DNA from: a virus
Taxonomy: Duplodnaviria; Caudoviricetes
Length of the DNA stretch: 64,000 nucleotides
Virus record (IMG/VR): IMGVR_UViG_2907202186_000003
Location: 32,001 to 96,000 of that record
Strand: one strand, 5' to 3'
The notes beneath the pieces were generated by a model. The model worked only from the letters and a program-made list of their open reading frames with translations, ran no database searches and was not told the DNA's origin. This document shows, piece by piece, positions 37,069 through 62,138 of the stretch; positions within the stretch are counted from its first letter, which is position 1; every line of letters begins with the position of its first letter. Position numbers and translations under genes: made by a program.

Positions 37069-38076
37069 TTATTCTATCTCGTAAACTTTTTTTATTGTTT
37101 CTTCATTGAGAAAATCCTTCGTGTACCTACTATATGCATAAAACTCATCCGCATGTGTTTGTTTTCCAATATTATAGTACTCACAAATGGTTATTATCTC
37201 ATCTCTTCCGAGTGAGCCTTTGGATTCATATAATTCTTTTGCCATATATAACATTCCAGAATTTCTAATATTGATTGCGCTGAGATGTTTTAGCCCTTTC
37301 CATACACCAATATTCTTTAATCTTCTCAATACCAGATGCTTATCTGCTTTCTCGTTTGCTGTAGCCCTACGCTTAACGGATCTAATAATATATGGGCTAT
37401 CAGCTAACTCCACTACAGGACTTTTAGCGGTACTATGTCCATTGTCTTGACTATAGTCTTTTTGCTCTGCAGCTCTTATTAATAATGCCATCAGATGTTC
37501 AGATATTTTAATAGTTCTTTTCTCTATTTCACCATTTTTCAATTCATTCTTAAGCGTAGCTGTACTCTCGTCAATATTCAAATCATTAATTGTTAAGTTT
37601 AATAATTCGCTATACTCTCTTCCGAATATTCCCTCAAATAAAGCTAAAGGGATAACTGAATCTTGCCAATTCTCTAAATCACCAATTATATCTTTTAGTT
37701 CTTCATTAGTAATCAATAATTTATTAGTCTTATCTACAAATTTCAAATAAAAACCCGAACTTCCCATGATATCTAGAGGATTTAAATTATCATCTCTGAG
37801 ATCCTGGCTTATAGCCCATCTAATGTAGTTTTGAATAATTGATCCACTGCCATTGGCAGATTGCAATGTTTTAGGAGCAAGATAACTCAATAGATCTTCT
37901 ATTTCAAACAAACTAAAGTTATACAAATCCTTACCTAGTCTTTCTTCAAGCTTGCTGGCTCTTTTGAGTACACGTAGGTATGTTGTATACGTGTTTTCAT
38001 TAAGTCCTTTTAAGAACCTTGTTTTTTGTTCTTCGTTATAGAGATAATCATTGTAAACTACATTAGACAAATCCAC
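37069..38076 (-). CDS. mrpR: Integrase-fold master repressor (SPbeta YopR/MrpR-like)
   Basis: LYNEEQKTRFL N-terminus, SAM-like domain, degenerate catalytic motifs (EGIFGREYSEL, NIRNSG); follows the yopQ-like gene. Confidence 0.78.
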   Translation of the reverse strand: MDLSNVVYNDYLYNEEQKTRFLKGLNENTYTTYLRVLKRASKLEERLGKDLYNFSLFEIEDLLSYLAPKTLQSANGSGSIIQNYIRWAISQDLRDDNLNPLDIMGSSGFYLKFVDKTNKLLITNEELKDIIGDLENWQDSVIPLALFEGIFGREYSELLNLTINDLNIDESTATLKNELKNGEIEKRTIKISEHLMALLIRAAEQKDYSQDNGHSTAKSPVVELADSPYIIRSVKRRATANEKADKHLVLRRLKNIGVWKGLKHLSAINIRNSGMLYMAKELYESKGSLGRDEIITICEYYNIGKQTHADEFYAYSRYTKDFLNEETIKKVYEIE

Positions 38077-58818: not shown

Positions 58819-59286
58819 TCAAGTAAAATATTGATAATCAAATTCAATATTTAGCTCAATTTGCTCTATTGTCGGCTCCCAATATATTAAATTACCTTGA
58901 TCTTTATAATAAGCTACGTTGTTTTTTATAAAGAATGTCTTATTCGAATAAAATCCACAATTTCTCATATCCTCCAATAAATATTTTAAATCGTTACAGT
59001 CATCATTGAACAATAAACCATTTATATAGTTATAGTATTTAGCAAGATTATAAATTAATATCTCGTCTAAGCAGAATTCTAGATTTGGATGAAGTAAAAC
59101 CTTATTCAAATTTATAAAAATTGTATCCTCTTCAAAAATCACATAACTATATCTATATTTCATTTTATTAGGAATGAATATTTTTCCTTTATATTCAAGA
59201 CTACATATCTTCTTTGCGAGAAATTTAGTCTTTCTTTCTAACATTGGAATGGAATTATCATCTTTCGAGAGTAATGTTTGAATCAA
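58819..59286 (-). CDS. SprT-like protein with degenerate metal site
   Basis: IFINL...LDEILIYNLAKYY in place of ILxHELxHY. Confidence 0.4.
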   Translation of the reverse strand: MIQTLLSKDDNSIPMLERKTKFLAKKICSLEYKGKIFIPNKMKYRYSYVIFEEDTIFINLNKVLLHPNLEFCLDEILIYNLAKYYNYINGLLFNDDCNDLKYLLEDMRNCGFYSNKTFFIKNNVAYYKDQGNLIYWEPTIEQIELNIEFDYQYFT

Positions 59287-59367
59287 AATATTCTCTCCTT
59301 TTATTAAAGATTTTACTTAGTGTTCAAATATACAATGTTACTAATTGTACCATTGTATATTTGTCTT

Positions 59368-59449
59368 GCCACCTAACCGCTCAATGTCAGCGGTTAACGC
59401 TCTAGGCTTAAGGCTCAATCCCGATATGTCGGGAACCGCCTAGACGGTT
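59368..59449 (-). ncRNA. Pistol self-cleaving ribozyme
   Basis: P1 AACCG/CGGUU with loop UCUAGG; P2 GCC/GGC; UUAAG-CCUAGA-GCG pseudoknot strand; P3 UUAACCGCU/AGCGGUUAG; G-U cleavage site. Confidence 0.88.
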
Positions 59450-60138
59450 TATTATACATTCTGTTTTAGTAACAGATAGTTATAACTTGCTAATTCATTA
59501 AGGTCAATTCCCTTTGATTCAATTAAATTTTTGATCTGTTCTTTAAAGGTATTCAGTCCAGTGATTCGGTCTTCTTTATTTGCAATTTCTTCGGTGTTTT
59601 GGATTTCTTGTATCGCAAAGCTAATATCGATCATAAATCTATATAATTCTACTGGAGTACCTTTTAATTTAACCTCTAATTCAATATTAGTTTCAAAATC
59701 ATTTTTCATTGTAATTACCTCCATTTTTTAGTCATATCATACCACTAATATGCAACATCAGTAATAATGAAATGAGGATTTCAATCTGATTTAATTCAAG
59801 TATTAAACCTTAGCTGCTAACGTTAACATTTCATTAAACACTATTAGATTGCTATATGCCTCAATTGGATCGATGTCTCTCCATTGTGATATTCCTTTTG
59901 TCATCTCTTTAATAAGTTCCAAGCCTCTATTATTTACGTTTATGTAATTTCCTTCAGGATAGCGTTTAGAAATTAGCTTTCGGACTTCTTCCTCTCTTTC
60001 CTGATTGAATAACTTCTGTACTTCGTTATCCTTTAAAACTGCCTTTTGTGTTTTACTTCTTCATTGTAAGATTTTAAAGCCTTCCTTTTTCCCGTTCTAT
60101 TCATACAATCGCCTCCTATGTATTGACTTTATATTTTT

Positions 60139-60167
60139 ATTATATTTATTTTATTGTTTAAAGTCAA
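60139..60167 (-). promoter_or_regulatory. SigA early promoter with ATAAAATAAATATA motif
   Basis: TTGACT-17-TATAAT. Confidence 0.75.
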
Positions 60168-61031
60168 GCGTTTGTTTTACTTTTATTTTAACCCGCTTTG
60201 ATTTGTTTCATTGGTTTCACCTCCATTAGTTTAATTTAAATCTTTTCCATCCACCAGACTGAGTCAGTGAAATCAAGCAGCCCGCCTTCGGTCAGGATCG
60301 ATTGTAAAGCCTTTTTGCCTCCTGCTGGTGTATAAGGTTTACCATCCCCTTTGAAGCCAAAGTAACCGAATGTAGGGTGATACAGTGTATAACCTTTTGG
60401 AATGATATAGCCACCTGGAACTATAAATTTTTGATTGGACAATTTCACAATTTTCAATGCTGCATTTATAGCTTTCGTTTCGTCTGTGCGTTCGTGATTA
60501 GTGTCATTGAGCGCTACGTACTCAAGAAGGAATGAAGTCATTGGAGATGCAGTAAACTCATTCTCGACTGCTTGAATAAGAAAGTCTGTTACTTGGATGT
60601 TTTCATCTTTCAGTGATTCATGAAAGCCCTGTTTAACTGTCAGTTGCTGACCAGGTAATAATTCGTTGTATGGGTGAGTACCAAAGTTAAAGATTTCGTT
60701 GGCCAGAAGATCGGAAAGATAATCCAGTTGTTCCATTTGGGAAAGTTGATTGAAGTTCATTATAATACATCTCCTTATAGTACAATTTATATAGTTATAT
60801 TTATTTTATTAGCGAAGGATTAAGGACCCATATACAGTTTGACCTTTTAATGCTTGCTTACGTTGCCACTGACTTTTTAAAACTGCTAATTTAGATTGAC
60901 TCACTTGATAACAACTCCTCTTTAAATGATTAACCTTATATTTATAATTATAATGATTTTATTAATAAAGTCAAGTCATTTCTTTACTTTTCGAATTGAA
61001 TGTCAAAAATAAAACCGCTACATATGAGCGG

Positions 61032-61463
61032 TTAGACTATATAGTATTTGCTTTCCTTCTCTGTGATACGTCTAAACTTAAATAACACCTCTACAGGTTC
61101 ATTCACAACATTTGAAACCCTAATCATTGTTTGAGCATCCAAATTGCCATCAGAAAGAATCTGATTAGCTCTTTGCTTAGTAACTCCTAAAGCTGCTCCT
61201 AACTCTTCCTGAGTAATTCCCTTGCTTTTAACTACTTCCTTCGCTGCATTCTCGAAACCTTCGTTTCTAAATATGGCTAGTTGCTTATCAATGTATTTAC
61301 TTGCTTTTGGACTGAGGTAAATTTCTTTGCATTGATTACACTGGATAGCTGGAATATGTTCGATAACAAACGTCTTACCATATTCCTGGTGTTCCATTGT
61401 ATGAAGAATATCAGTTAAATCTTTTGAGCCACACTCTACACATTTTGACATTAAAGTACCCAT
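61032..61463 (-). CDS. MqsA/YgiT-type Zn-finger plus HTH antitoxin
   Basis: CVECG...HIPAIQCNQCKE; ITQEELGAALGVTKQ. Confidence 0.8.
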   Translation of the reverse strand: MGTLMSKCVECGSKDLTDILHTMEHQEYGKTFVIEHIPAIQCNQCKEIYLSPKASKYIDKQLAIFRNEGFENAAKEVVKSKGITQEELGAALGVTKQRANQILSDGNLDAQTMIRVSNVVNEPVEVLFKFRRITEKESKYYIV

Positions 61464-61500
61464 GTAACATTCTCCTTTTAGATGGACTTGCGGTGATTTC

Positions 61501-61782
61501 TCACCGCTTATCCATTACCGTTATGATTATGATTGCATTTTCTTCATCAAACTTGATTGCCAGTCTATGGCTATGTATTCCACCCTCAACCTTGTATGAT
61601 GTGATGCCGTCAGGATTGTCTGTGTCTACTCTTAGGATGCGGTTGACATTGATTAGTATGTCCTCGATGTCAGCAGTCGTAATATTGCGGTCTGTCATTC
61701 GTTGCCTTGCATGAAGTCTGAGGAAGTACTTACCTTGTTTAGCTAGTGACTTGATTAGAGATATGATTTCTTGGTCACTCAT
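61501..61782 (-). CDS. DUF4258 (RelE/BrnT-like) toxin
   Basis: HARQRMTDRNIT..DI...IIITV; directly upstream of the antitoxin. Confidence 0.78.
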   Translation of the reverse strand: MSDQEIISLIKSLAKQGKYFLRLHARQRMTDRNITTADIEDILINVNRILRVDTDNPDGITSYKVEGGIHSHRLAIKFDEENAIIIITVMDKR

Positions 61783-62138
61783 TATGATATCACCTCACTT
61801 ATCTATAAGTCAATTATACGCTTAACTTTGAGATTAGTCAATATATTTATACTGTATTTGTATGTTTATTTTGTTATAAATACAAATAAACCGCCAATTA
61901 TTTTTGACGGTTAAAGGTGATCTGATATCGACAGCCGTAAGGCTGTACGGAGCAAAACAGACGCTTCAGCGGATTTTTGTGACGTGCCTTTAATGTGCGA
62001 AGCACTAAGATTAATACTCAATCGATAATTAAGAAAAAATCCTTGTGAATACTTATATTTTCAATAAAAAGTTGGACAAAACAACCTTATTAATATACTT
62101 ATATAATAAGCCTGTTATAGCCAACTTTTTAATCATGT

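Follow-up and report, generated by a model that had tools for sequence, protein, structure and literature searches.

The window analysed here, a 64-kb stretch of phage DNA, carries on its minus strand a short segment between two small genes, which an earlier note had read as a pistol ribozyme with an extra hairpin. Is this segment a genuine member of the class, and what becomes of a pistol in which a hairpin stands where a single-stranded linker is expected? Pistol RNAs have three stems and a single pseudoknot, with ten nucleotides that are highly conserved; their activity requires P1 and the pseudoknot, and they cut at a GU junction by a Mg2+-dependent internal phosphoester transfer (PMC4604425). 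In the canonical form, P1 and P2 are joined by J1-2, a 7-nt single strand; its strongly conserved residues A19-A21 dock in the P1 minor groove as A-minor triples (PMC6101554). Both G40 and purine-32 have been assigned roles (PMC6154101, where the structures 5K7C and 5KTJ are cited).

Our answer, to which we give a probability of about 0.72 on the strength of sequence comparison, is that the minus strand from 59450 to 59367 encodes a genuine pistol-class ribozyme, predicted to be self-cleaving and belonging to a recurrent 'linker-hairpin' subtype. The RNA is 84 nt long and reads AA-ACCG-UCUAGG-CGGU-UCCCGA-CAUA-UCGGGA-UUGA-GCC-UUAAG-CCUAGA-GCG-UUAACCGC-UGACAUUGA-GCGGUUAG-GU-GGC-A. Its parts, all on the minus strand, are as follows.

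59448-59445 and 59438-59435, minus strand: P1 hairpin, ACCG/CGGU, with an optional fifth pair A59449-U59434.
59444-59439, minus strand: P1 loop UCUAGG, the 5' strand of the pseudoknot, 6/6 Watson-Crick with CCUAGA.
59434-59419, minus strand: inserted hairpin P1.1, UCCCGA-CAUA-UCGGGA, 6 bp, beginning 0 nt after P1.
59418-59415, minus strand: tail UUGA joining P1.1 to P2, which occupies the end of the canonical 7-nt AUAAAnA linker and is without AAA.
59414-59412, minus strand: P2 5' strand GCC, partner of GGC 59370-59368 in the Rfam alignment.
59411-59407, minus strand: core UUAAG, containing the counterparts of purine-32 and G33; it aligns with the conserved UUAgGCccaGAGCGU of RF02679.
59406-59401, minus strand: pseudoknot 3' strand CCUAGA, within the core strand aligned to RF02679.
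59400-59398, minus strand: GCG, the G40/C41/G42 equivalents by the RF02679 alignment (residue roles per PMC6154101).
59397-59373, minus strand: P3 hairpin UUAACCGC(U)-loop-(A)GCGGUUAG, 8-9 bp by the Rfam alignment and fold.
59372-59371, minus strand: predicted scissile G/U dinucleotide at the P3-P2 junction of the Rfam alignment, cut 3' of G59372 and 5' of U59371.
59370-59368, minus strand: P2 3' strand GGC, by the Rfam alignment.

Each of the pistol elements named in the earlier note was thus found on the minus strand where it had been placed, and the pairings that it called intact are so, including the 6-bp pseudoknot, in which UCUAGG (59444-59439) is perfectly complementary to CCUAGA (59406-59401). 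P2 comprises just 3 pairs, which counts against the copy, and the pairing of U59434 is ambiguous, since it could join either P1 or P1.1.

We searched the window with Infernal and the Rfam pistol model, as the earlier note had proposed. The match to Pistol (RF02679) scored 38.8 bits, above the gathering cut-off of 34.5, with E = 0.0014 for the 64-kb window and 4227 families, and Pistol was the sole family in the window above its gathering score. With the same model, no second pistol was found in the 6.6-Mb genome, where the E value of the window copy is 3.4e-5. In the alignment, UUAAG...GCGU and the GU fall on upper-case consensus positions with posterior '*', and the register of UUA-R-G, GAGCGU and the GU junction is correct. 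Because the core and the 2-nt GU junction are in register, we placed the predicted scissile bond at G59372|U59371, which coincides with the site given in the earlier note. The score itself is marginal and depends on a mis-assigned P1, as the hit exceeds the threshold because the inserted hairpin is aligned as P1.

This raises the question of which hairpin is P1. Infernal assigns the nearer one, UCCCGA...UCGGGA; pseudoknots are outside its scoring. Were this assignment right, CCCGA-CAUA-UCGGG would be the P1 of a degenerate, pseudoknot-less pistol and the upstream hairpin would be unrelated, for example a terminator of the upstream gene orf85. Such a reading matches the cmscan alignment through which the hit clears the cut-off, but the loop of the inner hairpin, GACAUAUC, is unable to pair with CCUAGA, whereas the upstream loop pairs with it at 6/6 positions. 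Moreover, the upstream hairpin has no U-tract, and in relatives this hairpin and the complement of its loop covary, while the inner stems are unrelated in sequence. We therefore consider it very improbable that Infernal chose the correct P1. Judged by its sequence, the true P1 is the upstream hairpin ACCG-UCUAGG-CGGU, and that hairpin (CGUCUAGGCG) fits the pistol consensus CGUCnnGGCG at 9/10 positions. The order P1, extra hairpin, P2 follows from this consensus match and from the fact that the upstream loop can, and the inner loop cannot, pair with CCUAGA. Pseudoknot complementarity, the match to CGUCnnGGCG and covariation agree with the architecture that the earlier note had put forward.

Folding of the 96-nt stretch gave z = -3.8, and 0/200 shuffles were equally stable. 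The insert P1.1 alone folded at -8.4 kcal/mol, compared with -1.5 for shuffles. A pseudoknot-blind fold pairs UCUAGG with CCUAGA as well, and the predicted minimum-energy structure is a nested alternative fold without P1 and P2.

We then looked for relatives. Neither megablast of 9 kb around the site nor blastn of the 84-nt ribozyme found anything among 50,697 phage records, and an exact 22-mer scan of viral contigs gave zero matches. Viral contigs were also scanned with a pattern for P1, the pseudoknot and the core, leaving the distance from P1 to the core free between 8 and 38 nt. From this unbiased scan, 66 matches had complementary pseudoknot strands; 63 showed canonical spacing with a linker of the AUAAAnAG type, and 3/66 (4.5%) had a long spacer folding as a hairpin. 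The long-spacer pattern yielded one further member among 185,579 species genomes, L098 (Paenibacillus medicaginis), and about 15 further members in metagenomes. A covariance model made from the window's structure (R1) found two members beyond the reach of the pattern, L020:1771-1850 and L190, the latter from another genus of the same family. Other long-gap pattern matches were set aside as chance (L033, L052, L058, L073/74, L144, L173 and 53 from metagenomes), having either a non-complementary pseudoknot or lying in GC-rich coding DNA without P3/GU. L132 and L181 are doubtful, with a plausible 5' half and unconvincing P3/P2.

In all, 16 distinct natural pistols carry a hairpin in J1-2, each of 4-6 bp and starting 0 nt after P1. 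The replacement of the A-rich P1-P2 linker by a hairpin, as claimed for the window (59434-59419 plus UUGA, no AAA), is thus real and recurs in these 16 pistols. The tail after P1.1 is 3-7 nt long and purine-rich in the 16 members (GAG, AAAG, UAAG, AAGCA, UUGA and others). The P1.1 stems are unrelated in sequence, for instance CCCGA/UCGGG, GACUG/CAGUC, GACUA/UAGUC, GCCGC/GCGGC and AACC/GGUU, and several members cap them with GNRA loops (GAAA, GAGA, GUAA, GCAA). No description of a hairpin in the pistol J1-2 was found in the literature searched, though Weinberg et al. 2015 or its supplementary alignment may mention one; the linker-hairpin form is apparently undescribed so far.

To count pairs we used a model-based alignment (A3), and left out a MAFFT alignment (A1) because it mis-registered the variable hairpin; P1.1 was assessed instead through A3 and a direct fold of each insert. 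In A3, which is fitted to the model, 98.3% of the pairs of the whole structure were formed, against 68.7% in shuffles and 37-49% with slid partners. P1 was 100% paired with 4/4 pairs covarying, P2 98.6% with 3/3 covarying, and P3 99.5% and covarying; at P1.1, changes on both sides were seen at 5/6 pairs. The pseudoknot varies to UCCCGG/CCGGGA and UCUGGG/CCCAGA in relatives. Ascertainment is biased here, as most relatives come from a pattern that fixes the letters of P1, pseudoknot and core, followed by a filter for pseudoknot complementarity, so that pseudoknot covariation is independent only for L190 and L020b. Many GC-rich members also share one sample-name series (Ga03265xx) and are non-independent. 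Among the members found independently of the pattern, L020:1771-1850 has the pseudoknot UCUUGG/CCAAGA, and L190 has a compensated pseudoknot, UCUAAG/CUUAGA, a compensated P3 and the linker hairpin GACUA-UUA-UAGUC. L190 is the cleanest independent support for the linker-hairpin form.

How does this form compare with what is known? It shares with the canonical pistol (RF02679; Harris et al. 2015, PMC4604425) the 6-bp pseudoknot from the P1 loop to the P2-P3 junction, P2, P3, the UUA-R-G...GCGU core and the 2-nt scissile GU junction, as well as the association with phages and the occurrence in Firmicutes. It differs in J1-2, which contains AAA in the canonical form and is replaced in the variant by a 4-6 bp hairpin flush with P1 and a 3-7 nt purine-rich tail, and in length, canonical copies having about 65-70 nt against 84 nt in the window. 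With linker-hairpin copies, the Rfam pistol model goes wrong in one of two ways: the hairpin is taken for P1, or the score falls short of the cut-off. The closest relatives, L042, L098, L146 and L190, reach 30-32 bits, under that cut-off, and linker-hairpin relatives overall reach 28-42 bits, compared with 56-70 for canonical copies in the same loci. Canonical pistols of a related viral contig, L039 (IMGVR_UViG_3300025534_000182, 68-70 bits), have the same core and the same P3, UAACCGC/GCGGUUA, and the phage is of a similar type, with homologues of the DUF4258, MqsA-like and orf174 proteins as neighbours. Unlike the window copy, they have a normal AUAAACAG/CUAAACAG linker and no P1.1, a condition that is probably ancestral for the window's lineage. 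The pseudoknot-containing hammerhead (PMC11300833) resembles the element in connectivity, with a stem-loop that forms a 6-bp pseudoknot through its loop, and an A-rich strand making a minor-groove triplex with that stem, but it differs in catalytic core and mechanism, and the window core fits pistol, not hammerhead.

Because the canonical AAA is absent, activity should not be assumed from the canonical structures. One may argue that the fold is real and the ribozyme catalytically dead or very slow, a relic whose stable structure would serve only to stabilise or insulate the orf85 message at its 3' end. The loss of the conserved AAA that docks on P1 would fit such a relic, and so would the low Rfam scores of the window copy and of its relatives relative to canonical copies in the same loci. 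Against this, 16 diverged copies have retained all core nucleotides, the pseudoknot and the 2-nt GU junction, with compensatory changes, and a plain hairpin cap would require none of the three. Sequence conservation is also restricted to the ribozyme. A dead relic is thus unlikely, and we regard it as plausible, from the conserved core, that the window copy is catalytically active.

It could also be that the ribozyme is conditional, with P1.1 as a platform on which a protein, a further RNA segment or a temperature-sensitive helix could dock or bind; P1.1 would thereby gate the formation of P1 and the pseudoknot, and cleavage would be regulated. The constant abutment of P1.1 on P1, the freedom of U59434 to pair in either helix, the GNRA loops in several members, which are typical of tertiary contacts, and the absence of P1 and P2 from the predicted minimum-energy nested fold are all in line with this idea. 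However, neither the loop nor the stem sequences of P1.1 are conserved, which speaks against a specific ligand or protein site, and we think a gated ribozyme quite improbable. A broader proposal would treat linker-hairpin pistols, about 1 in 20 natural pistols, as a distinct functional subclass in which a P1-stacked and often GNRA-capped helix replaces the A-minor scaffold, and in which cleavage between two genes may in some phages, the window's included, depend on a factor or on competition for the shared U59434; we find this improbable as a whole.

We favour an active pistol of the linker-hairpin type, and for this reading the proposed course of events is as follows. As the transcript folds, the P1 loop UCUAGG would pair with CCUAGA to give the 6-bp pseudoknot, with P2, P3 and the core as in canonical pistols. 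The single-stranded A-rich J1-2 is replaced by P1.1, which abuts P1 without a spacer and is followed by the 4-nt tail, and P1.1 may stack on P1 and stand in for the A-minor triplex. In pistols, the 2'-OH of the G attacks the GU phosphate, leaving a 2',3'-cyclic phosphate and a 5'-OH (PMC4604425, PMC6154101). By analogy with the class, the 2'-OH of G59372 would attack its 3' phosphate, G59400, which follows the pseudoknot, would act as general base, and a hydrated Mg2+ would participate. The upstream product would then end in a 2',3'-cyclic phosphate, and U59371, with a 5'-OH, would be the first nucleotide of the downstream product.

What such a cut would do depends on the setting. The window lies in an island of ~137 kb with 32-37% GC (about C11:163-300 kb), in a genome whose large contigs have 47-51% GC; this unusually wide gap suggests that the island was acquired recently from hosts of lower GC, or has long been associated with them. 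The host genome is probably Paenibacillus. A homologue of the MrpR-type recombinase-fold repressor, with MrpR_N and MrpR_C domains, is encoded at 37069-38076 (1.6e-28 and 8.9e-17), together with a Y-family polymerase, an ATP-dependent ligase, a DnaB-like helicase, a Sak4-like protein and a tubulin/FtsZ-like protein elsewhere in the window. Among phages, the best matches of the MrpR-type protein are only 30-34% identical and come from Perkons, Sundance, E3 and Tsamsa, temperate Bacillales phages with large genomes of 120-170 kb. The prophage is accordingly likely to be SPbeta-like, a type of large (~130 kb) temperate phage with a recombinase-fold repressor of the MrpR type and a repeated operator element.

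An 18-bp palindrome, RTRAAA-N6-TTTYAY, occurs in 31 strict copies in the window (3522-58195), where 0.7 would be expected. The 1-Mb contig has 54 copies, every one of them (54/54) inside the low-GC prophage island (C11:164839-299736), and identical or similar copies occur in L042 and L146. We considered whether it forms an RNA hairpin, but its half-sites vary independently (A/C and G/T combinations, both orientations), and a DNA site fits better. With SPBRE and MrpR of SPbeta as a precedent for a repeat and its repressor (PMC10516654), a repressor operator, which the MrpR-type protein may bind, is the likelier reading of the palindrome, ahead of an integron-like recombination site.

The features around the ribozyme are given below.

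60139-60167, minus strand: promoter-like site TTGACT-17-TATAAT, an 11/12 consensus match and the nearest strong candidate for the ribozyme unit.
59767-59784, no strand assigned: one-mismatch copy of the 18-bp palindrome (ATRAAA-N6-TTTYAT), 43 nt upstream of the 59724 ORF start.
59452-59709, minus strand: orf85, the upstream gene, 85 aa and without a family, with its ATG at 59709 behind GGAGG.
59325-59363, minus strand: perfect 13-bp inverted repeat CAAAUAUACAAUG-N13-CAUUGUAUAUUUG, 8 nt past the predicted cut and without a U-tract.
58819-59286, minus strand: orf155, the downstream gene, without a family, with a TTG start behind AAGGAGAG.

orf85, the ribozyme and orf155 are co-directional. The earlier note let the element start 2 nt past an ORF of 59452-59724; its stop, TAA at 59454-59452, holds, and the start needs correction. 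From the sequence context, ATG 59709 is most likely the start of orf85 rather than 59724, because of the GGAGG in front of it, the resulting 85 aa and the agreement with the homologue in L190. orf85 is 53% identical to the ORF that precedes the variant pistol of L190; it belongs to no family in Pfam or PHROG, searches of viral contigs gave no relative, and among 5.8 billion proteins it matched only itself. At L190:1501-1600, the P1 loop UCUAAG contains the stop of the orf85 homologue (…KQTV*), giving an 11-nt overlap between coding sequence and ribozyme. In the window, the ribozyme ends 80 nt before orf155. No terminator-like site was found between 60139 and 58819, that is from the promoter-like site to the end of orf155, and after orf155 a perfect TTGACA-17-TATAAT precedes the next gene. 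Between the promoter-like site and orf85, at 59804-60103, we noticed a 21-codon ORF behind a strong RBS, followed by ~250 nt that look like coding sequence broken by one stop; this region may be a decayed gene or several micro-ORFs.

The 13-bp inverted repeat at 59325-59363 is unique in the window and absent from relatives, and the 110-nt downstream stretch that holds it folds at -22.6 kcal/mol. It could serve as a DNA operator or, as a hairpin, protect the 5' end of the downstream message. Its loop contains a weak extended -10 (TGgTACAAT). A promoter-like GTGGCA-17-TACAAT overlapping the cleavage site (59372-59344) was discarded, since sites of this quality number 42 against 38 expected and so provide no evidence of a promoter.

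In relatives, DNA similarity to the window is limited to the ribozyme: it covers 59456-59368 in L042 and 59447-59360 in L098 (84% over 90 nt), and the alignments stop within a few nt of the ribozyme borders, beyond which the adjoining sequence is unalignable. Apart from L190, the flanking genes in relatives are unrelated. The same ribozyme between unrelated genes in different phages, with similarity ending a few nt past its borders, might indicate a DNA-level junction or recombination module between exchangeable gene cassettes, for which RNA cleavage would be incidental. However, what is conserved is RNA base pairs with compensatory changes, not DNA sequence, and no link to a recombinase was found; we rate a DNA module as highly improbable.

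At related loci, pistols start -11 to +16 nt from the upstream stop, most within 3 nt, and most end 20-40 nt ahead of the next gene start, several with a clear GGAGG-type RBS. For ribozymes that flank genes in prophages, a role in cutting long phage transcripts has been put forward, and arrays of this kind were shown to cleave in vitro (PMC3088659). This tight intercistronic packing fits the proposal that ribozymes cut prophage transcripts into gene-length mRNAs (PMC3088659). The prophage hammerhead arrays (Perreault et al. 2011, PMC3088659) likewise consist of small ribozymes between co-directional genes of varying identity and have the same proposed role, turning long phage transcripts into gene-length mRNAs. 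They differ in ribozyme class, and the window holds a single ribozyme, whereas related loci hold 2-3 pistols with twister- or hammerhead-like motifs.

In the window, the cut would, by its position, part the orf85 message from the orf155 message, so that two genes of one transcript could differ in stability or translation. The orf85 message would keep nearly the whole folded ribozyme as a 3' cap, and the orf155 message would have an 85-nt leader beginning 8 nt before the 13-bp hairpin. It is plausible that the ribozyme processes a multi-gene message, which fits both the anatomy of the locus and the published prophage precedent (PMC3088659). The near-copy of the 18-bp palindrome upstream of orf85 suggests that the unit may be an early one.

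Several further observations concern the surroundings of pistols in these phages. At 61032-61782, the window encodes a DUF4258 protein (93 aa) and then a zinc-ribbon and HTH protein resembling MqsA/YokU antitoxins; with its own promoter-like site and terminator, the pair looks like a toxin-antitoxin module, and its homologues adjoin pistols in L039 and L098. Two terminator-like hairpins resemble parts of the ribozyme: AACCG-UCAAAAAUAAUUGG-CGGUU at 61889-61912 resembles P1, including the UC...GG loop ends, and AACCGC-...-GCGGUU at 61013-61033 resembles P3. A canonical pistol of L039 occupies the position equivalent to 61889-61912, directly upstream of the DUF4258 gene homologue. The two hairpins may be a pistol relic or a coincidence. 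Dense ribozyme clusters are found on the related metagenomic phage contigs L185, L161, L040, L121 and L020. Within 2 kb, L185:2751-4461 has three pistols (1 canonical, 2 linker-hairpin) together with a hammerhead that scores below threshold; L040 and L121 each have one twister-P5 plus pistols, and L020 has two linker-hairpin pistols 1.4 kb apart.

Taken together, the element is a structural variant of a known ribozyme class in a setting that is ordinary for the class. In it, a large temperate phage again has a ribozyme tightly packed between two small genes of the same orientation, an arrangement for which the transcript-processing hypothesis is an old one. It also exposes a blind spot of the standard Rfam model, with the four closest relatives under the cut-off and the passing copies mis-aligned. 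The recurrence of the hairpin-for-linker form shows that the A-rich P1-P2 part of the pistol scaffold is replaceable, and linker-hairpin pistols offer structural biology a natural test of what the A-minor triplex contributes.
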